A DNA stretch of 64,000 nucleotides from Escherichia phage vB_EcoM_JB75. Location of the stretch: sequence record MH355584.1; one strand, written 5' to 3'. The notes under the pieces were generated by a model. It did no database searches. It was given only the letters and a program-made list of their open reading frames with translations, and was not told where the DNA came from. The position numbers and the translations under genes are program-made. The first letter of the stretch is position 1; every line of letters begins with the position of its first letter. Shown piece after piece: positions 1 to 10,634 of the stretch.

Positions 1-117
1 CGTATTATCATAAATGGTAAATATGCTTTAAGAATTATTTGTTATTATTAACTCATACCGCACTGATTAATACCCTCTATCATTAGGGGTTCTTGTTAGA
101 GAGCCTTTGTTAATAAT

Positions 118-190
118 TGGGAATTAGCCAAGTTGGTAAGGCATAGCACTTTGACTGCTAGATGCAAAGGTTCGAGTCCTTTATTCCCAG
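118..190 (+). tRNA. tRNA-Gln (anticodon UUG)
   Basis: Cloverleaf: 7-bp acceptor stem TGGGAAT/ATTCCCA, anticodon loop CUUUGAC, T-loop GGTTCGAGTCC; no encoded CCA. Confidence 0.85.
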
Positions 191-191
191 C

Positions 192-278
192 GCGAGAATG
201 GTCAAATTGGTAAAGGCACAGCACTTAAAATGCTGCGGAATGATTTCCTTGTGGGTTCGAGTCCCACTTCTCGCACCA
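192..278 (+). tRNA. tRNA-Leu (anticodon UAA), long variable arm
   Basis: Acceptor GCGAGAA/TTCTCGC, anticodon stem CAGCA/TGCTG with loop CUUAAAA, encoded CCA. Confidence 0.85.
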
Positions 279-283
279 AATTT

Positions 284-357
<74 letters not shown>

Positions 358-367
358 ATTTAATTTA

Positions 368-441
368 CTCCGTGTAGCTCAGTTTGGTAGAGCGTCTGCT
401 TTGGGAGCAGAATGTCGTAGGTTCAAATCCTGCCACGGAGA
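368..441 (+). tRNA. tRNA-Pro (anticodon UGG)
   Basis: Acceptor CTCCGTG/CACGGAG, anticodon loop UUUGGGA, T-loop GGTTCAAATCC; no encoded CCA. Confidence 0.85.
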
Positions 442-443
442 CT

Positions 444-533
444 GGAGGCGTGGCAGAGTGGTTTAATGCACCGGTCTTGAAAACCGGCAGTCGCTCCGGC
501 GACTCATAGGTTCAAATCCTATCGCCTCCGCCA
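444..533 (+). tRNA. tRNA-Ser (anticodon UGA), long variable arm
   Basis: Acceptor GGAGGCG/CGCCTCC, anticodon stem CCGGT/ACCGG with loop CUUGAAA, encoded CCA. Confidence 0.85.
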
Positions 534-538
534 GTTTT

Positions 539-614
539 GCTGATTTAGCTCAGTAGGTAGAGCACCTCACTTGTAATGAGGACGTCGGCGGTTCGATTCC
601 GTCAATCAGCACCA
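539..614 (+). tRNA. tRNA-Thr (anticodon UGU)
   Basis: Acceptor GCTGATT/AATCAGC, anticodon loop CUUGUAA, T-loop GGTTCGATTCC, encoded CCA. Confidence 0.85.
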
Positions 615-615
615 A

Positions 616-690
616 GGCCCTGTAGCTGGAAGGTTCAAGCAAGCGACTCATAATCGCCAGATGGTGGTTCAATTCCACCCAGGGCCACCA
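616..690 (+). tRNA. tRNA with CAU anticodon (Ile2-type AUA reader by analogy to T4 tRNA-Ile; Met not excluded)
   Basis: Acceptor GGCCCTG/CAGGGCC, anticodon loop CUCAUAA, encoded CCA; identity of CAU tRNAs cannot be decided from sequence alone. Confidence 0.75.
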
Positions 691-703
691 AATTAAGAAT
701 TAA

Positions 704-790
704 GGGGAGTTATCCCGTAGAGGTAGCGGTGTGGACTGTAAATCCATTGTCATTGCGACTCGGGTGGTTCGACTCCATCACTCCCCACCA
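704..790 (+). tRNA. tRNA-Tyr (anticodon GUA), long variable arm
   Basis: Acceptor GGGGAGT/ACTCCCC, anticodon loop CUGUAAA, T-loop GGTTCGACTCC, encoded CCA. Confidence 0.75.
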
Positions 791-794
791 ATTT

Positions 795-869
795 GGATGT
801 GTAGCTCAGTGGTAGAGCAGTTGACTGTTAATCAATTGGTCCATGGTTCGAATCCATGCATGTCCGCCA
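795..869 (+). tRNA. tRNA-Asn (anticodon GUU)
   Basis: Acceptor GGATGTG/CATGTCC (two G-U pairs), D-arm TAGCTCAGTGGTAGAGCA, anticodon loop CUGUUAA, encoded CCA. Confidence 0.75.
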
Positions 870-873
870 AATA

Positions 874-949
874 CGAGGCATAGCTCAGAAGGAAGAGCAA
901 GGACCTTCTAAGTCCTGGGTCGTAGGTTCGATCCCTACTGCCTCGACCA
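874..949 (+). tRNA. tRNA-Arg (anticodon UCU)
   Basis: Acceptor CGAGGCA/TGCCTCG, anticodon stem AGGAC/GTCCT with loop CUUCUAA, encoded CCA. Confidence 0.85.
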
Positions 950-1054
950 GACAAGAAGCCGGGTCGCTACCGGCAAGTCGTCGGACTGATGTTCCCTGTT
1001 TAAGGACTGGTATTAATAAATCTTTATGTTTTGTTAATGTCCCCTTATATCACA

Positions 1055-1216
1055 GCAGAAACGGCGCACCGAATTATCGATTCGAGGAAATATCTTTGCC
1101 GTAAGCCGAGTAGCGTTTTTGACGGAACGTTCGGATATGGTCGAGATATGGCCTTTTAAAAATATTGAGTAGCGTCAACTGCTTAATAACCGGGTTCGAA
1201 TCCCGGCGTTTCGTAC
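1055..1216 (+). ncRNA. Putative small stable RNA with tRNA-like T-arm (compare T4 species 1/2 RNAs downstream of the tRNA cluster)
   Basis: Non-coding stretch after tRNA-Arg with CCGGGTTCGAATCCCGG T-arm-like hairpin at about 1190-1208 and partially paired ends; boundaries approximate. Confidence 0.25.
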
Positions 1217-1262
1217 AAACACTTGCCTTAGCAGGTGGAACCCCGACAAGGTTGCCGCAAGG

Positions 1263-1296
1263 CTTAGCCCCGACCGAAAGGTTGGGGCTTTTTAGT
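1263..1296 (+). repeat. 34-bp direct repeat copy 1 (contains terminator hairpin)
   Basis: CTTAGCCCCGACCGAAAGGTTGGGGCTTTTTAGT, identical to 1818-1851. Confidence 0.9.
1266..1295 (+). terminator. Rho-independent terminator
   Basis: GC-rich stem AGCCCCGACC / GGTTGGGGCT, GAAA loop, T-run. Confidence 0.7.
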
Positions 1297-1303
1297 ATAA
1301 ATA
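1296..1303 (+). promoter_or_regulatory. T4-type late promoter TATAAATA
   Basis: Exact TATAAATA 37 nt upstream of the Ip-type gene start (1340). Confidence 0.5.
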
Positions 1304-1339
1304 AGTATATTAAAACCCCGAATTAAAACAGGAAATAAG

Positions 1340-1813
1340 ATGAAATCATATGCTCAATTTTTAAATGAAGCGGTGTTAAATGAAGCATCTAGCACCGAAA
1401 TTCAAGCTGTCGCAAAAGCAGCCATTGCAGCGGGTAAATATTCCTATAAAGATGCTTCTGACGAATCACGATTCCAATTTGCTCGCGACATGAAAGCAGA
1501 AGGATTTACGGGAAATGCAGTTAGTATGGCCTGGAAAAGTCTAGTTGCTACTGGCGCTGCTTTTGCAAAGGCTTCGGGTAAACCTGCTCCTAAAGCAGAT
1601 CCTAAAGCGGCACAAGAAAAAAATATCGTTAAAGGAATTATCGCTAAATATGAAGCTATCCTTAAAGAGCTTTTAGTAATCAAAACCGAAGGCCAAAAGT
1701 TAGCCCGTGCTTATAGTTTCAAAGATAATCCACATGTTCACTCTCTTGAGTATGTTGAAGACATCCAAAAAATTATTAAAGACCGCATTTGGTCTGCTAA
1801 ACAAATCAAATGA
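1340..1813 (+). CDS. Internal protein (Ip-type), N-terminal capsid-targeting sequence
   Basis: 157 aa; N-terminus MKSYAQFLNEA resembles the T4 IPI/II/III targeting sequence MKTYQEFIAE cut by the prohead protease; RBS AGGAAA. Confidence 0.7.
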   Translation: MKSYAQFLNEAVLNEASSTEIQAVAKAAIAAGKYSYKDASDESRFQFARDMKAEGFTGNAVSMAWKSLVATGAAFAKASGKPAPKADPKAAQEKNIVKGIIAKYEAILKELLVIKTEGQKLARAYSFKDNPHVHSLEYVEDIQKIIKDRIWSAKQIK

Positions 1814-1817
1814 CATT

Positions 1818-1851
1818 CTTAGCCCCGACCGAAAGGTTGGGGCTTTTTAGT
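1818..1851 (+). repeat. 34-bp direct repeat copy 2 (contains terminator hairpin)
   Basis: Perfect copy of 1263-1296. Confidence 0.9.
1821..1850 (+). terminator. Rho-independent terminator
   Basis: Same hairpin plus T-run as at 1266-1295. Confidence 0.7.
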
Positions 1852-1938
1852 TTGAATCACATAGAGAATGCTGCTACGGATAGTAACAAAGTAATAAATA
1901 ATTAATAACCAACCGATAAATTATTTCAAGGATTTTAA

Positions 1939-2502
1939 ATGAAAACCTATGCCGAATTTTTAACCGAAGCAGCAAAATTACCATCTGAAGCAGATCTTAC
2001 TAAAGTATTCTTCCAATTGGACCCAAAAGACCGCGGCGATTTTCTTAAGTGGAAAGCTAAAGCTATTGAAATGTACAACATCGATAATAGTTCTTTTACA
2101 ATGAGTCAAGAAAATAAATTCAATAAAGCATTTTTCAAAATTTCTAAGAAATTGGCATCTGGCGCTCAGGTTCCTAAATCTGTGTTAGCTACTCCTGAAC
2201 GCGCACCTGTTAAAATTTCTAAGAATATGTTCGACACTAAAAAATACGTTAATGCTTTGAATAAAGCTCTTGATGCATTGGATGATGCAAAGAAGGCAGC
2301 CCGCGATCTTCAAGACGTGTACACCGATTTTGACCGCAAAACTAAAGGTTCTATTTCAAATAGCGAACGCAATAGTGTAAGTGTTTATTCTGATAGCCTT
2401 GATGTTCTTGGCGATGCGTATACTGAAATTAAAAATCGTATTAACACTGCATCTAAGCTAAAAGCTGCTGCAGAAGCTATAATAACTAAACTAGGTAAAT
2501 AA
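1939..2502 (+). CDS. Internal protein (Ip-type), N-terminal capsid-targeting sequence
   Basis: 187 aa; N-terminus MKTYAEFLTEAA; lysine-rich. Confidence 0.7.
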   Translation: MKTYAEFLTEAAKLPSEADLTKVFFQLDPKDRGDFLKWKAKAIEMYNIDNSSFTMSQENKFNKAFFKISKKLASGAQVPKSVLATPERAPVKISKNMFDTKKYVNALNKALDALDDAKKAARDLQDVYTDFDRKTKGSISNSERNSVSVYSDSLDVLGDAYTEIKNRINTASKLKAAAEAIITKLGK

Positions 2503-2510
2503 TTTTAAAT

Positions 2511-2535
2511 CCCTATCTAAATGATAGGGCTTTTT
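2511..2535 (+). terminator. Rho-independent terminator
   Basis: Stem CCCTATC / GATAGGG followed by T-run. Confidence 0.6.
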
Positions 2536-2627
2536 GGTATCTAGGCCTTTCTGGACCTCTCTAGGCATCATTTAGTTTATACCCTTTATAATATATTATC
2601 CTATCCTTTAATTGCCCATCCCTGCCC

Positions 2628-2734
2628 TAGAATTCCCTAAAAATTTTTTCACAAAACTGTTTACATCTCTGTTCTTCCATGGTACTATACAACTATCAAC
2701 TACTGATACAGAAAACAACTTGGAGAATGAAATG
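2628..2734 (+). repeat. Promoter/5'UTR cassette copy A (near-identical to 45532-45631)
   Basis: About 100 nt shared, including early promoter, leader and RBS GGAGAATGAAATG. Confidence 0.85.
2659..2688 (+). promoter_or_regulatory. T4-type early promoter (sigma70-like)
   Basis: -35 GTTTAC, 18-bp spacer, -10 TACTAT, upstream A/T tract. Confidence 0.7.
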
Positions 2735-2995
2735 GATAATTACGGCGAACTGTTCAACTTCTTTATGAAATGCGTTTCAGAAGATTTCGGTCGTACAGTG
2801 AATGATATTAAAGTTATCGGTCCTGAACATCCGATGTTTGAAACTTACGCAGTAATGGGTAATGAAGACGGTCAGTGGTATACTGTAAAGGTTGTGATTA
2901 ACATGTTCACTGCTGAAAGTTATGTTAAACTGTCTTCTAAAGTTTACCATGATAACGACGAAATCGCTGAAGAATATTTCAATAATATGAAATAA
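2732..2995 (+). CDS. Hypothetical protein (87 aa)
   Basis: ORF-track frame 2612..2995 trimmed to the ATG after RBS GGAGA; the upstream part of the track ORF is the promoter. Confidence 0.55.
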   Translation: MDNYGELFNFFMKCVSEDFGRTVNDIKVIGPEHPMFETYAVMGNEDGQWYTVKVVINMFTAESYVKLSSKVYHDNDEIAEEYFNNMK

Positions 2996-3051
2996 GTTTA
3001 CATAGGTTCATGATTGAGATATTATGAGCCTATACAAATGAGGAAAACATT

Positions 3052-3387
3052 ATGAAACGTAACTTTAGTAAAGCTTTTTGTAATAGAAATAATTATCCTG
3101 AAGAGCTTTTTGAATCTAAGGACTTTAAAGAGTTTAACGAACGTTCTCAAAACATGCCTGTACAATGGGTGTTAGATTATGCCAAACGTATCTTTGAAGG
3201 CGTGCGGGATATTTGTCCTGATGATGAAGCTCCTTATTTTAAAAAGGCTTGGGAACTCGCCAACCAAGCATATATCAATGCTTTAGAATCTTCTAAAGGT
3301 ACTGACGATGATTTTATTTTATTGGCTATCAATGATGCCGTTATCGAGGCCATTGACGTCTTTATCGATGAGCTAGACGAAGAATAA
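3052..3387 (+). CDS. Hypothetical acidic protein (111 aa)
   Basis: ORF with RBS GAGGAAA; acidic C-terminus. Confidence 0.55.
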   Translation: MKRNFSKAFCNRNNYPEELFESKDFKEFNERSQNMPVQWVLDYAKRIFEGVRDICPDDEAPYFKKAWELANQAYINALESSKGTDDDFILLAINDAVIEAIDVFIDELDEE

Positions 3388-3443
3388 GTTTACAATCTAT
3401 TAAAACGTGATATTATCTAATTATACCAACCTAAGGAAATACT

Positions 3444-4037
3444 ATGAACACACTGAAGAAAATTGTTGAGTTTATTCGCACTAAACTTGGTTCTGCTATG
3501 GCTAAAAATCTATCTGTTGAAGAACAGTATACTGCTGCAGCAGCAAAACTGCTTGATAAAATTAAAGACCTAAAAACTGCTTCTGTTAAATCTATTAATG
3601 AAGAAAAACGTATTCGTGAACTTATTGTTGAAAAGAATAAGCAGGCCGAATCAAAAGAGCGTGAAATTCGCAAGCTTCTTTCTGAAGGTCAAGATGTAAC
3701 AATGCATGCTAAACTCGGTTTACTATATCGTCGAACAGCTGAGCAGTTGACTACTAAGGCTGACGGTTATGCTGAAATGCGAATTGAAATCGCCAAGAAA
3801 GTAGTTGAGTTAGATGATGCTCGTCAAGAACTTGCAGTTAAATTGGAATATATCCGTGAAACTCGTGCGGCAAATGCCCTTGGAATTAGTACTGCCGATG
3901 ATGTAGTTGAAATTGCAGCACTGACTAAGGTTGATATTGAAGATACCCTTGCTCGAGTTGAAACCTTTAATGGTAATATTTCTGGGGTTGAAACTACCTC
4001 TGCCGATGTTCAGGAATACATTAATTCTCTGAAATAA
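3444..4037 (+). CDS. Hypothetical alpha-helical coiled-coil protein (197 aa)
   Basis: Heptad-like charged helical sequence throughout; loosely PspA/IM30-like in composition. Confidence 0.6.
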
Positions 4038-4078
4038 TGATAAGGGGTTTCGGCCCCTTATACTTGGAGTAAATAGGA

Positions 4079-4693
4079 ATGAAAATGAAAATGCAAAGTG
4101 ATTTCAATTCAATGTTTGAAGAGTTCCAAAGACAGGTTGATGTTCCAGACCAATTACTAAATGCTCTTAAACGCATGGCAGAAGGACGTAATTACTATTG
4201 GGGGTCTTCATATGAAACTGATGAAAGCCTTTCCGGAAGATTTTCTAGAGGTAAAAAGTCTTTAATACGTCCTGGAATACTCATTAACAGTATTGAATCA
4301 ATTCATTCATTGACATGCGATTTTGATGTTGAATTTACTGATTTCATTTCTCCTGAATGGACGGTATGTTATTTAAACGACGATTTTGATTATCTCGGTG
4401 TTTATAGTTTAAGTGACGCATGGTTTAAACGTAATTTACAAAAGTCAAATTTATTCTATATTGATACTACAGTAAAATTTCAGGGAAAGAAATATTTCTT
4501 TACTCTTATAGTTGATTCTGAAACGAAGCATGAAAATAAACGTATTCTTAGTAAAAGAAATATCTTGAATATTGTTGATGATCTTTTTGATAAATTAGTG
4601 GAAAATCCTAATTTTGAAAGTGATTTATTACTAGAAAAATTTGTTAAGGAATGTAGAGAATATGTCAAAACCATCACTATACCTTCCAAGTAA
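4079..4693 (+). CDS. Hypothetical protein (204 aa)
   Basis: ORF with RBS GGAG; C-terminus KFVKECREYVK resembles the C-terminal motif of the three following ORFs. Confidence 0.6.
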   Translation: MKMKMQSDFNSMFEEFQRQVDVPDQLLNALKRMAEGRNYYWGSSYETDESLSGRFSRGKKSLIRPGILINSIESIHSLTCDFDVEFTDFISPEWTVCYLNDDFDYLGVYSLSDAWFKRNLQKSNLFYIDTTVKFQGKKYFFTLIVDSETKHENKRILSKRNILNIVDDLFDKLVENPNFESDLLLEKFVKECREYVKTITIPSK

Positions 4694-5054
4694 ACCGTTG
4701 AAGTATGAATTAAAGCGTCAGATAATTTCTACTGATGTGTTAATAGGTCCTGTTATACTCATATCATTTGTAATTCTATTGATTATTGGAGGTGTTTTAG
4801 ATGTTATGACTGATATTGATTCTGGCGAAATACTTGTGTTAATGCTAATTCTTCCATTAATAGTTCCACTTTTATTAGTACCCGTAAATTGGGTAGGATA
4901 CTGGTATCAAGGAAGGCATTATCGTAAACGCGTACGTGATTGGAAAGCACAGTGTAAAAAGATTAAAAAGGAACATCAGCTTAAACTTGCTGCGCATGAA
5001 TTTGATGAAATTATGAAATTTGTTAAGGAATCACGATGCAAAAGCCAAAACTAA
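4662..5054 (+). CDS. Small membrane protein, tandem paralog 1
   Basis: Two hydrophobic helices; C-terminal FVKESRCK motif; start chosen at internal ATG, uncertain. Confidence 0.5.
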   Translation: MSKPSLYLPSKPLKYELKRQIISTDVLIGPVILISFVILLIIGGVLDVMTDIDSGEILVLMLILPLIVPLLLVPVNWVGYWYQGRHYRKRVRDWKAQCKKIKKEHQLKLAAHEFDEIMKFVKESRCKSQN

Positions 5055-5398
5055 ATAAAGTCAAATATTCGTTTCCAGAGGCACTATTAATTCTTGCCGT
5101 ATCAGCATTTGCAGCTCTTGCAGGTAGTCTTATTGGATTGTTAATTGATTGTTTTATTTTAAACATCGACGGCACAGTAATTATAACAGAGGTTTGGAGT
5201 GAACTTCGTTTTACTATAGCGATTTCATTATTTTCATTCTTTGGTACCATGTTATATTTTCATTATGATAATTTTAAAATAAATTGGCAAAGAAAAAAGG
5301 ATTACAAAATACAATTAAAAGAATATAATAGCTACATGTCTTATATTGAAAATGAGTCAATGAAAGAGTTTGTGAGTGATTGTAGGAAAATTAAATGA
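5036..5398 (+). CDS. Small membrane protein, tandem paralog 2
   Basis: 120 aa; hydrophobic helices; C-terminal EFVSDCRKIK. Confidence 0.55.
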   Translation: MQKPKLNKVKYSFPEALLILAVSAFAALAGSLIGLLIDCFILNIDGTVIITEVWSELRFTIAISLFSFFGTMLYFHYDNFKINWQRKKDYKIQLKEYNSYMSYIENESMKEFVSDCRKIK

Positions 5399-5513
5399 TT
5401 TTAAAAACTCGCTGGTATGATTTAGATGATGGGGATGATGGCATTTCAGTTGATAGAGTTGACTGGAATGGTTGTTCCGAAGATATGAAAATTTGTTGAT
5501 TAGGGAGTTTAGA

Positions 5514-5878
5514 ATGGGATATCAAGCAGCTAAGCCATTTACTGTAACAGATGATAAGTTCGTATGTATTCAAAACGGTCGCGCTAAGTTAACGAATGCT
5601 GATTGGTTCACAGATAAGAAGGTTCTTCTGTGGTATATCATTAGTCTTCCTATATCATCGTTCGTATTTTACTTTTTTATAAAAAATCCAATGGACAGAA
5701 TAGGAGATTGGGTTCTTTTAACTATACTTGTTAATATTTTTACAGCAGCAGTATTATCAGGAATATGGCGTATGTTCATTGAAATGCCATGGCGTTTACG
5801 CAGACAACAAAAGATTTTTGATGAAAAGAAATATACTCAAAATTTAAATAACTTTATCACTGAATGCAGGAAATTAAA

Positions 5879-5882
<4 letters not shown>
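5514..5882 (+). CDS. Small membrane protein, tandem paralog 3
   Basis: Start at ATG after RBS GGGAG; hydrophobic helices; C-terminal NFITECRKLK. Confidence 0.55.
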
Positions 5883-6851
<969 letters not shown>

Positions 6852-6855
6852 AGTT

Positions 6856-6885
6856 GTTTACTTTCTCCTAGAATTGTGATAGTAT
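6856..6885 (+). promoter_or_regulatory. T4-type early promoter
   Basis: -35 GTTTAC, 18-bp spacer, -10 TAGTAT. Confidence 0.65.
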
Positions 6886-6939
6886 ATTCACAGTTGCTTG
6901 AAGAGACAAATTACTAATTAAAATATTTAAAGGAAACAT

Positions 6940-7413
6940 ATGAAAACATATCAAGAATTTATCACTGAAGCAGCTATTAATTCTCAAATTATTGCTGAAT
7001 CTTTTACTGATCTTTTGAAATTTAAAAAAGGTCAAAAAATTACTGCTGTATTGGATGATGGTACAGAAGTTGAGATGGATGTACAGGGATATAATTATGC
7101 AGTAGATGGAAAACTGTATAATAAATCTCATGCTAAATTTGATTCATTTGACGACTTTGTTAATACAGTTGAAGATGAAAAAACTCGTCGATCCATTGCA
7201 ACTGGTGATGCTAAGGTTCTTATGGCACATGGTCATGAACGCATTCGCGCTAAACAGAATAAAATGGGTGAAGATAATTTTGCATTAGTTGGTTATCAAT
7301 CTGGTAAACAAACTTATGGCTATCAACGTACTGCTACAATGTATAATAAAAATGGTAAAATTGCCTTTGTAAATAGTAAAGGTTCTATTCAGTACGTTAA
7401 ATCGTTCAAATAA
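6940..7413 (+). CDS. Internal protein (Ip-type), N-terminal capsid-targeting sequence
   Basis: 157 aa; N-terminus MKTYQEFITEAA; sits where T4 has ipIII, downstream of e. Confidence 0.7.
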   Translation: MKTYQEFITEAAINSQIIAESFTDLLKFKKGQKITAVLDDGTEVEMDVQGYNYAVDGKLYNKSHAKFDSFDDFVNTVEDEKTRRSIATGDAKVLMAHGHERIRAKQNKMGEDNFALVGYQSGKQTYGYQRTATMYNKNGKIAFVNSKGSIQYVKSFK

Positions 7414-7566
7414 GCAAATAAGAAATATGGGAACAAACTGGACCTCATGATTCTATGAGGGATTCCCGCCAACCTGTAATAAGGTCGAGCCTGAGTGCGG
7501 TAATGGGTAAATACAGAAATGGACAATTCATGCGCCATGGAATGGCCCAAATTTAGAGAGAATAAA

Positions 7567-8106
7567 ATGAGAACATTTTTAACTGGTCCTTATCTATCCC
7601 TGATGAATGCTTTTACACACCATTCTGATGCTAGAGTAGAAGAAATTTGTAAAAACGATTATATCCCACCATTTGAAGACTTACTTAAACAGTATTGCAC
7701 ACTTCGACTAGATGGTGGACGTCAATCCGGTAAATCAATTGCTGTGACTAACTTCGCTGCTAATTGGTTGTATGATGGCGGAACAGTTATTGTTCTTTCT
7801 AATACTTCAGCTTACGCTAAAATTTCTGCAAATAACATTAAAAAGGAATTTTCGCGTTATTCTAATGATGATATACGTTTTCGTTTATTTACTGATTCTG
7901 TGCGCAGTTTTATTGGTAATAAAGGAAGCAAGTTCAGAGGTTTATCGCTTTCACGAATTTTGTATATAATTGATGAGCCTGTTAAATCTCCTGATATGGA
8001 TAAAATTTACGATATTCATATTGAAACTGTGCAACACTGCTGCAATAGTAAATGTTGCATTGGTGGTATTACTCGTCCACAGTTTTTCGTAATCGGAATG
8101 CAATGA
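7567..8106 (+). CDS. Hypothetical P-loop protein
   Basis: Walker A-like GGRQSGKS; start ambiguous (ATGs at 7519, 7537, 7567). Confidence 0.5.
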   Translation: MRTFLTGPYLSLMNAFTHHSDARVEEICKNDYIPPFEDLLKQYCTLRLDGGRQSGKSIAVTNFAANWLYDGGTVIVLSNTSAYAKISANNIKKEFSRYSNDDIRFRLFTDSVRSFIGNKGSKFRGLSLSRILYIIDEPVKSPDMDKIYDIHIETVQHCCNSKCCIGGITRPQFFVIGMQ

Positions 8107-8432
8107 TGACAGACACTCAGCTTTTCGAATATCTTTATTTTTCGCCAAAAACTATTAAAAATAAATTGGTGAATCATTTTGAAATTTTAGCAAATAATAA
8201 CATTTTGAGCGAATTTTATCCCAAGCAATACAAATTACAAAAAGGTGTATTCAAAGGATGCAGAGTTTTGTGCACTGCTCCTAATGCAAGATTAATGAAT
8301 AAAATTCCGTATTTTACCATGGAATTTATTGATGGACCTTTTAAAGGATTAATTACGCAAAGTTTAATGGCATATGATTCTGAGCCGTTTTTAATTAAAG
8401 AACAATCTTGGATAAATTTATTTTCTAATTGA
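8103..8432 (+). CDS. Hypothetical protein (109 aa)
   Basis: ATG overlaps upstream stop codon. Confidence 0.5.
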
Positions 8433-8439
8433 GGTTTAT

Positions 8440-8802
8440 ATGAAAGCATATCAAATTCTTGAAGGCACACACAAAGGCACTATTTATTTTGAAGATGGTA
8501 TTCAAGCACGAATTATCGTTTCTAAAACCTTTAAAGAGGACTCTTTTGTAGACCCAGAAATTTTCTATGGTTTGCATGCCCGTGAAATTGAAATTGAGCA
8601 ACAGCCTACAGTTAAAATTGAAGGTGGTCAACACCTGAACGTTAACGTTCTGCGTCGTGAAACTCTGGAAGATGCAGTTAAGCATCCGGAAAAATATCCG
8701 CAGCTGACCATCCGTGTATCCGGTTATGCAGTTCGCTTTAACTCTCTGACTCCGGAACAGCAGCGCGACGTTATCGCTCGTACCTTTACCGAGAGTTTGT
8801 AA
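8440..8802 (+). CDS. Autonomous glycyl-radical cofactor, GrcA/YfiD-like
   Basis: C-terminal ~58 aa ([60 protein letters not shown]) match recalled E. coli GrcA, including the glycyl-radical motif RVSGY. Confidence 0.85.
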
Positions 8803-9023
8803 TGGCAAAGATAATTATTGAAGGTTCTGAAGATGTGCTAAATGCTTTCGCCGAGTGGTTTAGTAATTCAGGCGAACAGCAATTTAATGAAGCCTGGAAT
8901 ATGGGTGATATTGATGGAATTTATCCTACGACAGAAATTTCTGTTCAGGGATATGGCATTCATGAACCTATTCGTTTAGTTGAATACGATTTATGCACTG
9001 GTGAGGAAGTCAAATATGATTGA
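8802..9023 (+). CDS. Hypothetical protein (73 aa)
   Basis: ATG overlapping upstream stop (TAATG). Confidence 0.5.
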   Translation: MAKIIIEGSEDVLNAFAEWFSNSGEQQFNEAWNMGDIDGIYPTTEISVQGYGIHEPIRLVEYDLCTGEEVKYD

Positions 9024-9282
9024 AGATATTAAGGGTTATAAACCACATACCGACGAAAAAATCGGTAAAGTAAATGCTATTAAAGACGCTGAAGTTCGTT
9101 TAGGACTTATCTTTGATGCTTTATATGATGAATTCTGGGAAGCGTGGGACGATTGCGAAGACTTTGAACTCGCGAAGAATTATGCTGAAAGCCTCGATCA
9201 GTTAGCTATTGCTAAAACGAAACTCAAAGAAGCCAGTATGTGGGCTTGTCGTGCTGTGTTCCAACCAGAGGAAAAATACTAA
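9016..9282 (+). CDS. Hypothetical protein (88 aa)
   Basis: ATG after RBS GAGGA; acidic and aromatic-rich. Confidence 0.5.
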
Positions 9283-9560
9283 TGGCTCAATTAAGCGCAG
9301 GGTTTGGTTATGAGTATTATACTGCCCCTCGTCGTGTGTCTGCTGCTCCTAAGAAAATTCAAAGTCTTGATGACTTCCAGGAAGTAGTCCGTAACGCTTT
9401 CCAGGACTATGCACGGTATCTTAAAGAAGATTCACAGGACTGTCTCGAAGAAGATGAAATTGCTTACTATACGCAGCGTCTTGAACAGCTCAAAAATCTA
9501 CATGAGGTTCGTGCAGAAGTTTCAAAGTCTATGAATAAATTGATTAGATTTAAAGAATAA
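9282..9560 (+). CDS. Hypothetical protein (92 aa)
   Basis: ATG overlapping upstream stop; helical C-terminus. Confidence 0.5.
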
Positions 9561-9562
9561 CT

Positions 9563-9592
9563 GTTTACTTTTCCTCTTGACTGTGGTATAAT
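9563..9592 (+). promoter_or_regulatory. T4-type early promoter
   Basis: -35 GTTTAC, 18-bp spacer ending TGTGG, -10 TATAAT. Confidence 0.75.
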
Positions 9593-9619
9593 TTTTCTAT
9601 CAGTTAAGAGGAGAACAAC

Positions 9620-10081
9620 ATGACTATCAATACAGAAGTTTTTATCCGTCGAAATAAGCTTCGTCGTCACTTTGAGTCGGAGTTTCGTCAAATTAACAAT
9701 GAGATTCGTGAGGCATCAAAAGCAGCAGGAGTCTCATCGTTTCATCTAAAATATTCTCAACATCTTCTTGATCGTGCAATTCAACGGGAGATTGATGAGA
9801 CATATGTTTTTGAATTATTCCATAAAATAAAAGACCATGTTTTAGAAGTTAATGAATTCCTGAGTATGCCTCCGCGTCCTGACATTGACGAGGATTTTAT
9901 TGATGGGGTTGAATATCGTCCTGGACGTTTAGAAATCACAGATGGAAATCTTTGGCTTGGATTTACGGTTTGTAAGCCTAATGAGAAGTTCAAAAACCCG
10001 TCACTTCAATGCAGGATGGCAATTATCAACAGTCGTCGTTTACCAGGAAAGGCTTCTAAAGCAGTAATTAAAACTCAATGA
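9620..10081 (+). CDS. regB: Site-specific endoribonuclease RegB
   Basis: 153 aa, matches recalled T4 RegB sequence and position. Confidence 0.85.
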   Translation: MTINTEVFIRRNKLRRHFESEFRQINNEIREASKAAGVSSFHLKYSQHLLDRAIQREIDETYVFELFHKIKDHVLEVNEFLSMPPRPDIDEDFIDGVEYRPGRLEITDGNLWLGFTVCKPNEKFKNPSLQCRMAIINSRRLPGKASKAVIKTQ

Positions 10082-10088
10082 GGTAAGC

Positions 10089-10634
10089 ATGAGAAAAGCA
10101 CTACTCGCTGGTCTATTGGCCATTTCAATGATGGCACATAGCTCCGAGCATACTTTCAGTAATGTCCAACTCGATAACATGCGTTACGCGTATCAATTCG
10201 GGGAACAATTTTCTAAGGATGGAAAATATAAAACACACAAAAATATCCACAAGAGCGGATTAGGTCATATAATGGCTGCTATTTTATGGCAAGAAAGCTC
10301 TGGCGGAGTTAATTTAAAATCTAAACCAAAGCATCACGCTTATGGAATGTTCCAAAATTATTTGCCTACTATGCGAGCAAGAGTTAAGGAACTTGGTTAT
10401 AATATGACCGATGCTGAAATAAAAAGAATGTTGAATAAACGATCCAATTCAGCTTCCTGGGCGTACATTGAACTTTCTTATTGGTTAAATATACATAAGG
10501 GCGATATAAGAAAAGCAATATCATCTTATAATTCGGGATGGAATGTTAAAGCAGGTTCTAAATATGCTTCTGAAGTCCTAGAAAAGGCTAATTACCTTAA
10601 AAATAATAAACTTTTGGAAATAGTAAATGACTAA
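10089..10634 (+). CDS. Secreted lytic-transglycosylase-like protein
   Basis: N-terminal signal peptide; SLT-like motifs WQESSGG and AYGMFQ. Confidence 0.65.
   Translation: MRKALLAGLLAISMMAHSSEHTFSNVQLDNMRYAYQFGEQFSKDGKYKTHKNIHKSGLGHIMAAILWQESSGGVNLKSKPKHHAYGMFQNYLPTMRARVKELGYNMTDAEIKRMLNKRSNSASWAYIELSYWLNIHKGDIRKAISSYNSGWNVKAGSKYASEVLEKANYLKNNKLLEIVND

Follow-up and report, generated by a model that had tools for sequence, protein, structure and literature searches.

The e-to-regB interval of Escherichia phage vB_EcoM_JB75: a T4-type early-gene block with a candidate structured RNA ahead of vs.8

What takes the place of denV, the T4 pyrimidine-dimer glycosylase gene, in a T4-like phage that appears not to carry it? 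The question is raised by positions 6,940–9,560 of a 64,000-nucleotide stretch of Escherichia phage vB_EcoM_JB75 (record MH355584.1; this whole stretch is called the window below), which lie between the lysozyme gene e and regB. The original prediction, made from the letters and their translated open reading frames (ORFs), held that this interval lacks a recognisable denV and carries a P-loop ORF instead, together with one internal protein (Ip) gene, a GrcA-like gene and four small ORFs. Our analysis indicates with high confidence that the interval is the standard early-gene block e-to-regB of an RB32/AR1/OE5505-type Tequatrovirus, in which the P-loop ORF is the T4 gene vs.8. It also indicates that the DNA just ahead of vs.8 (7429–7519) may encode the T4-group member of an undescribed class of structured RNA, present in about ten lineages of large virulent phages, T4-like, rV5-like, Flaumdravirus and Vibrio phages among them, a reading to which we give a probability of roughly one half.

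A megablast search with positions 6300–10100 matched 853 phage records at this locus. The top match, vB_EcoM_OE5505, is the closest complete genome (99.7% identity over the full length of the query) and is followed, also at full length, by ESCO58 (99.4%) and by RB32, AR1 and many others (about 96.6%); the window is therefore a Tequatrovirus (T4-like) segment. We translated the T4 proteins from nudE to vs from the T4 record and aligned them to the whole 64-kb window by tBLASTN. All genes of the block run left to right on the + strand, and the ORFs of the original prediction are all present where it had placed them. RB32 (DQ904452) and AR1 (AP011113) have the same order as the window, namely e, Ip4, vs.8, vs.7, vs.6, vs.5, vs.4, vs.3, regB; neither has denV, and from e to regB their DNA is 96.6% identical to that of the window, with point differences only. 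T4 (NC_000866) is collinear with the window from vs.8 through regB (88–100% protein identity), but carries ipIII-ipII-denV between e and vs.8, where the window phage carries Ip4. There is no real evidence against reading the interval as this gene block, and the arrangement is already known, since RB32, AR1 and hundreds of further Tequatrovirus records carry it in their annotation. Because the ORFs are T4 vs genes, Vs.4 is a published sponge and the RB32/AR1 arrangement is annotated, the denV and P-loop observation as first worded is known biology and changes nothing. Annotated T4-like genomes and published work already record the absence of denV, the exchange of Ip cassettes, vs.8 and the Vs.4 sponge; only the RNA element, a by-product of the analysis, could be new and could matter.

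A conserved candidate RNA element ahead of vs.8

When the window, RB32, Salmonella phage Jbel and T4 are aligned, a block of about 120 nucleotides between the cassette slot that follows e and the start of vs.8 is almost invariant; an indel just 3′ of this block shifts the reading frame, and the block itself is kept. A sensitive blastn search with 7425–7556 returned 1044 phage records, and a part of the block, 7465–7509, also matches the unrelated rV5-like Vequintavirus, Pseudomonas phage KIL2 and Vibrio phages RYC and F94, where the match lies in intergenic DNA or beneath doubtful tiny ORFs. Further lineages were found by exact-pattern scans of IMG/VR and metagenomes. Five Tequatrovirus sequences were used to build a covariance model, which has a single match in the window, 7429–7519 (120.7 bits), and matches all other lineages with expectation values (E) of 1e-28 to 3e-3; it gave no second copy in the rest of OE5505. 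T4 has the element as well, at 64848–64938 of NC_000866 (L004 4349–4439), where the annotated vs.8 begins inside it. The parts of the candidate RNA are the following.

7429–7519, + strand: candidate conserved structured RNA element, about 91 nucleotides
7429–7433 with 7463–7467, + strand: helix P1, enclosing hairpin P2
7443–7448 with 7455–7460, + strand: helix P2
7469–7471 with 7504–7506, + strand: helix P5, one nucleotide after P1, opening the three-way junction
7472–7475 with 7482–7485, + strand: helix P3 (ACCU/AGGU), closed by the T-loop-like hexaloop GUAAUA
7489–7490 with 7497–7498, + strand: short helix P4
7438–7440 with 7514–7516, + strand: putative pseudoknot between a segment inside the internal loop of P1 and the complementary tail that follows P5
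7520–7548, + strand: 3′ extension AUGGA...GCCA[UGGAA]UGGCCC, found in T4-like phages only, with a hairpin at 7534–7537/7543–7546

The RNA would thus consist of a 5′ domain, in which a hairpin is set within a helix, and a three-way junction bearing the T-loop-like hexaloop, the two being probably tied together by the pseudoknot. CGA and GGUAA, the strands at the junction, do not vary among the roughly ten lineages compared.

Base-pair changes support this fold. When 22 sequences are aligned by the covariance model itself, pairing in the core helices reaches 97%. The pair that closes P5 (71:104) is AU in 11 sequences, UA in 4, UG in 4 and CG in 3, with no mismatch, a P4 pair is CG in 19 and UA in 3, and one P3 pair is flipped in KIL2. 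The covariation score of the core was reached by none of 500 shuffles. Across lineages this alignment was too messy in the 5′ domain, which was therefore segmented by hand, and the model alignment was used for the core only. Compensatory changes are seen there between close relatives, both in P1 (GGGAA/UUCCC to GGGAG/CUCCC; AAAGG/CCUUU to AAAGC/GCUUU and to AAAGA/UCUUU) and in P2 (CCUCAU/AUGAGG to CCUUAU/AUAAGG), and two metagenomic members differ in the pseudoknot (CGGAA/UUCCG to CGGUU/AGCCG). In our view the nested helices have good support, whereas the pseudoknot is no more than probable.

The 3′ extension is kept in sequence in 11 diverse T4-like phages, without covariation. It holds two GGA motifs, AUGGA and the hairpin loop UGGAA, about 20 nucleotides apart; in the spacing and presentation of these motifs it presumably resembles CsrA-type binding sites.

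The surroundings of the element follow a pattern of their own. T4-like phages have it 0–15 nucleotides beyond the last cassette gene's stop codon; in T4 it follows the denV stop without a gap. Although it usually stands ahead of vs.8, two Ip genes flank it in some phages, and so it is not a leader specific to vs.8. Every lineage that is not T4-like has it within or next to an array of tRNA genes, on the same strand as the tRNAs: KIL2, L025 and L173 carry it within the array, rV5-like phages about 500 nucleotides upstream of tRNA-Arg, and L189 17 nucleotides after a tRNA and 18 nucleotides ahead of a weak tRNA-like match, as though it had taken a tRNA slot. In the rV5-like phages about 100 nucleotides of hairpins follow the core (ACCCA/UGGGU, GUCCAG/CUGGAC and GCAGGG/CCCUGC; L005 1556–1680, L028 181–260), the order there being RNA core, hairpins, a gene for a small basic protein (MADTTKKRRRRGRPLKEESN...) and tRNA-Arg, and the RNA may be larger in these phages.

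Several results weigh against reading the conserved stretch as such an RNA. The hand-segmented alignment is 98.9% paired, a figure that is partly circular because the columns of P1, P2 and the pseudoknot were themselves located by complementarity. The pseudoknot taken alone did not reach significance in a tail-shuffle test (combined p = 0.075), and folding energies were no better than those of shuffled sequences (minimum free energy z-scores of −1.15 to +0.5). Finally, in T4-like phages the element lies outside the tRNA cluster and about 6.5 kb from it.

The element belongs to no class with which we could match it. Rfam 15 gave no match overlapping it, with E allowed up to 10 for the window and up to 1 for seven other lineages, and ARAGORN did not call it as a tRNA, so that tRNA, transfer-messenger RNA and every Rfam family were rejected as names for the conserved stretch. 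A literature search on vs.8, on comparable RNA motifs in phages and on the core sequence returned nothing relevant, and none of the papers searched prints that sequence. IMG/VR was also scanned for elements whose P4 has the U-A variant and for those with a hexaloop of the KIL2 type; each scan gave one locus and nothing new. In bacterial genomes a degenerate pattern with 14 specified bases returned 120 loci, a chance-like result from a pattern too loose to judge presence; 100 of these loci were run against the covariance model, and the two that matched (E 0.14–0.21) both appear to be coding sequence.

An improbable alternative is that the RNA is a hepatitis delta virus (HDV)-like self-cleaving ribozyme of the theta type, which would cut at its own 5′ end and so separate the upstream message or tRNA from the downstream sequence. 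The order of its strands (P1, 5′ pseudoknot segment, hairpin, P1′, branched domain, 3′ pseudoknot segment) is that of a nested double pseudoknot, and complementary pseudoknot segments occur in every lineage, though with the shuffle result given above (p = 0.075). Cleavage at the 5′ end would also suit an RNA that begins 0–15 nucleotides after the upstream stop codon and, in L189, 17 nucleotides after a tRNA, and HDV-like theta ribozymes are known beside phage tRNAs (PMC10879173). HDV-like ribozymes are defined, however, by a catalytic cytosine that opens J4/2 (PMC10879173), and the equivalent position of our element varies among G, C, U and A; it is on this residue that membership of the class was rejected. 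In addition, L173 and L189 have no inner hairpin, the conserved nucleotides lie in the three-way junction, a region that is variable or absent in HDV-like ribozymes, the HDV-family models of Rfam do not match the RNA, and the pseudoknot itself has only tentative support. Theta ribozymes and the element have in common that they are small, occur in large tailed phages and often lie beside tRNA genes (PMC10879173), but the element has a large invariant three-way-junction core where theta ribozymes have a variable or absent P4, and it is found in phages of Proteobacteria and they in gut phages of Bacteroidota and Bacillota.

Its 76–91 nucleotides make the element far smaller than GOLLD or ROOL. 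These two RNAs and T4 rnaC/rnaD are non-tRNA RNAs of unknown function that lie beside phage tRNA genes. The element is like them a structured non-tRNA associated with phage tRNA arrays, but it is unlike them in sequence and shows no model similarity to them, and its single copy in the window lies outside the tRNA cluster at 118–949.

It is very unlikely that 7429–7556 codes for protein rather than being an RNA element, whether by extending Vs.8 at its N-terminus or through the 33-residue ORF at 7455–7556. That ORF does exist, and T4 Vs.8 is annotated as 219 amino acids (NC_000866 64253–64912) from an ATG equivalent to window position 7455. However, the first 32 residues of the T4 protein match the window at 7455–7550 in a different frame from the remainder (tBLASTN), the frames differing because of the indel just 3′ of the near-invariant block, and the stretch upstream of vs.8 is out of frame with vs.8 in the window, RB32 and Jbel. 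RB32 and AR1 are also annotated with longer vs.8 starts (189 and 195 amino acids) that run into the RNA element. By comparison, the alignment of 18 members of the Vs.8 family, with identities as low as 40%, begins in each of them at a conserved MRTFL or MKTFL. The stretch 7429–7556 is, moreover, near-invariant at every codon position, the changes that it does have are compensatory for base pairs, and unrelated phages carry this core in the intergenic DNA of tRNA arrays without a conserved ORF. The T4 gene model of vs.8 therefore probably starts too far upstream, the family-wide start being MRTFL at window position 7567; if the RNA reading is true, the N-terminal 45 residues (codons 1–45) of T4 Vs.8 would be an annotation artefact.

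A structured RNA at 7429–7519 would be transcribed together with the early genes of the block. Since it occupies the tRNA-array slot of other phages, a processed stable small RNA or an RNA-processing signal is most likely, and our best guess from this context is that its partner would be a factor conserved among gamma-proteobacterial hosts. If the reading is true, the RNA would be a processed, tRNA-sized stable RNA, a new ribozyme or a processing signal, with a role connected to tRNA, translation or host takeover, and phage biology would gain a new RNA family and a corrected gene model for T4 vs.8. T4 has one of the best-studied genomes, yet a conserved, covarying RNA would lie unannotated inside one of its gene annotations.

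Absence of denV and identity of the P-loop ORF

The claim that the interval has no denV was borne out. When T4 DenV was aligned to the whole 64-kb window by tBLASTN, no homolog aligned in the interval and the best hit (E 3.8) lay outside it, and no ORF of the interval carries a pyrimidine-dimer glycosylase domain in Pfam. Since the window by itself is silent on the rest of the genome, we also searched the portion of OE5505 beyond it (70,000–168,756 plus 1–8,000) with T4 and Jbel DenV; the best tBLASTN hit there had an E of 4.8. The window phage thus almost certainly lacks denV genome-wide and not just in the window, and it should be ultraviolet-sensitive like a T4 denV mutant.

The distribution of the gene agrees with its absence here. 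It is present in 287 phage records, compared with the 853 that match the locus, in all 287 as a single copy, and it lies near 57–65 kb in the listed records with T4 numbering. In Jbel the order is e-denV-Ip4-like-vs.8, so that denV lies between e and the Ip4-like gene and does not adjoin vs.8. Because this order differs from that of T4, we consider denV a movable, dispensable cassette. A denV that has diverged past recognition, or that has moved elsewhere in the genome, is conceivable in that the window covers about 64 kb of a genome of about 168 kb and that DenV was looked for by tBLASTN and Pfam; this possibility is highly improbable, however, as tBLASTN with two DenV variants came up empty both in the window and in the 105 kb of OE5505 beyond it, the gene sits at this locus once per record in the listed records with T4 numbering, and every ORF of the interval has been assigned to a T4 ortholog.

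The P-loop ORF is one of these orthologs.

7567–8106, + strand: vs.8, 179-residue single-domain P-loop (RecA-like/ASCE) NTPase; Walker A at 7714–7737, Walker B at 7957–7977

Residues 26–219 of T4 Vs.8 align at 7519–8103 with 90% identity (tBLASTN), and the ORF matches phrog_1488 (E 1.4e-79). In the T4 record vs.8 lies immediately downstream of denV, and the P-loop ORF is therefore neither a replacement for denV nor an addition relative to T4. That it was gained in place of denV, possibly as a substitute for it, is an idea that its closeness to the T4 denV position and its Walker A motif would favour, and it is refuted by the gene order of T4, which carries both genes together, by the identity to T4 Vs.8, by the presence of vs.8 in denV-carrying phages such as Jbel and by a fold that is that of a RecA-like ATPase domain and not of a glycosylase. 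On this one point the original prediction did not hold.

Vs.8 has the Walker A motif GGRQSGKS at residues 50–57 and the Walker B motif ILYIIDE. Among the 18 family members mentioned above, DGGRQSGK[ST] (Walker A), IIDEP (Walker B), R113 and R124 are invariant, and the AlphaFold model is a single alpha/beta domain (predicted local distance difference test score, 81; predicted template modelling score, 0.82). A Walker A motif of the form GxxxxGK[ST], a Walker B motif of the form hhhhDE and a RecA-like fold are all present, and Vs.8 is classed accordingly as a P-loop (ASCE/RecA-like) NTPase. It has no second domain and so is no helicase or terminase by itself; a large terminase or a helicase was rejected since the second RecA or nuclease domain is missing from the 179-residue protein and the Pfam AAA_14 match is below threshold. 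The family comprises 27 clusters, and all those with a source name come from T4-like phages or are labelled E. coli. Several records, including ESCO58, call Vs.8 homologs "endoribonuclease", a name for which the sequence and the predicted fold give no support; the label may have been carried over from the neighbouring regB.

The cassette slot after gene e

Directly after e lies a hypervariable cassette slot, in which T4 carries ipIII, ipII and denV, each with a presumed early promoter of its own, and in which the window phage carries a lone Ip4 cassette, denV being a dispensable cassette that this whole lineage lacks. The cassette of the window has two parts.

6856–6885, + strand: early-promoter-like sequence (GTTTAC, 18 nucleotides, TAGTAT), heading the Ip4 cassette
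6940–7413, + strand: Ip4, predicted internal virion protein of 157 amino acids, with the capsid-targeting N-terminus MKTYQEFITE|A

The four-phage alignment shows the promoter-like sequence in nearly identical form ahead of T4 ipIII and ahead of Jbel denV, and it stands with the same leader ahead of different cassettes. We infer that 6856–6885 would act as an early promoter. A generic sigma-70 scan did not include it in its list, and a generic promoter and terminator scan was uninformative.

The product of the gene matches Pfam DUF7412 (E 5.7e-96) and phrog_3155, "internal virion protein" (E 6e-102), and the same gene is annotated Ip4 in RB32 and AR1. T4 IpII and IpIII match the window at 6940 through the shared N-terminal capsid-targeting sequence only (tBLASTN). 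With both a targeting sequence and an internal virion protein family match, Ip4 is predicted to belong to the T4-type internal proteins. The expectation of a single Ip gene was correct, and that gene is Ip4, neither ipII nor ipIII.

Polymorphism of Ip genes among T-even phages was described in the 1990s. T4 ipII and ipIII share a 74-nucleotide direct repeat that spans the leader, the ribosome-binding site and the targeting sequence, and cassettes could be gained, lost and reordered by recombination between such repeated promoter, leader and targeting sequences, which would be the simplest explanation of the polymorphism of the slot. T4 also repeats 20 nucleotides from the 3′ end of gene e (ACTTGGGACGC...) just downstream of ipIII (L004 5305–5324 and 6011–6030), and this copy looks like the scar of a recombinational cassette insertion.

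From vs.7 to vs.3, and the flanking genes

The remaining features of the block and its surroundings are given below, with identities to the T4 proteins from the tBLASTN alignment.

118–949: ten tRNA genes (Gln, Leu, Gly, Pro, Ser, Thr, Met(CAT), Tyr, Asn, Arg)
5864–6316, + strand: NudE, 95% identity
6357–6848, + strand: e (lysozyme), 97% identity
8103–8432, + strand: vs.7, 109 amino acids, 99% identical to T4 Vs.7 (8103–8429); phrog_2049
8440–8802, + strand: vs.6, predicted GrcA-like autonomous glycyl-radical cofactor, 120 amino acids, 98% identical to T4 Vs.6 (8440–8799)
8802–9023, + strand: vs.5, intact, 73 amino acids, overlapping the start of vs.4; phrog_1986 over the full length, E 9.6e-44
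9016–9282, + strand: vs.4, predicted Acb2-family cyclic-dinucleotide sponge, 88 amino acids, 93% identical to T4 Vs.4 (9016–9279)
9282–9560, + strand: vs.3, 92 amino acids, 99% identical to T4 Vs.3 (9282–9557); phrog_2037
9620–10078, + strand: RegB, 99% identity
10089–10631, + strand: Vs.1, 100% identity
10627–10971, + strand: Vs, 100% identity

The GrcA-like gene and the four small ORFs of the original prediction are thus vs.6 and vs.7, vs.5, vs.4 and vs.3, respectively, and the ORFs at 9016–9282 and 9282–9560, which it had placed at the T4 vs.3/vs.4 position, proved to be Vs.4 (93%) and Vs.3 (99%). Its guess, from position, that one of the two could be the counterpart of the anti-CBASS (cyclic-oligonucleotide-based antiphage signalling system) sponge was right for 9016–9282. 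This protein matches Pfam PF24729, Acb2_Tad1_hairpin (73.7 bits, E 1.3e-20; the curated cut-off is 27), and PDB entry 7UQ2, "Vs.4" (E 3.7e-52), with which it shares 82 of 88 residues (93%). T4 Vs.4 is a hexamer that binds three molecules of cyclic GMP-AMP (cGAMP) with a dissociation constant of about 30 nM (Jenson et al. 2023, PMC10097602). Y8, F82, H11, K23 and R79 contact cGAMP in the T4 protein, L29, A66, A73 and A77 (and F33) are interface residues, and T12 and S74 are sites of escape mutations (PMC10097602). The six substitutions that separate the window protein from 7UQ2 (E13D, L44W, N46D, C50F, F52L and T64A) include none at a reported functional position, and Y8, H11, T12, K23, L29, F33, A66, A73, S74, A77, R79 and F82 are all unchanged. 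On these residues and matches, ORF 9016–9282 is the predicted Acb2-family cGAMP sponge Vs.4. As a hexameric sponge it would sequester cGAMP and blunt CBASS immunity, and the window phage keeps this predicted anti-CBASS sponge intact.

The product of vs.6 carries the Pfam domain Gly_radical (PF01228, E 2.5e-18) and an RVSGY motif in its translation; by this domain and glycine loop it is predicted to be of the GrcA type. T4 Vs.5 aligns to the window in two pieces in different frames, within 8802–8976 (tBLASTN). The T4 reference vs.5 (L004 2882–3058) has a 1-nucleotide deletion, TTCG-CGAG as against TTCGCCGAG, which shifts its frame and leaves 58 amino acids, whereas the window and RB32 have an intact vs.5 of 73 amino acids.

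The tRNA set of the window differs from the annotation of OE5505, which has a His tRNA and a coding sequence within the array, and the tRNA island is therefore another variable region; the ten tRNA genes of the window are more than the eight of T4.

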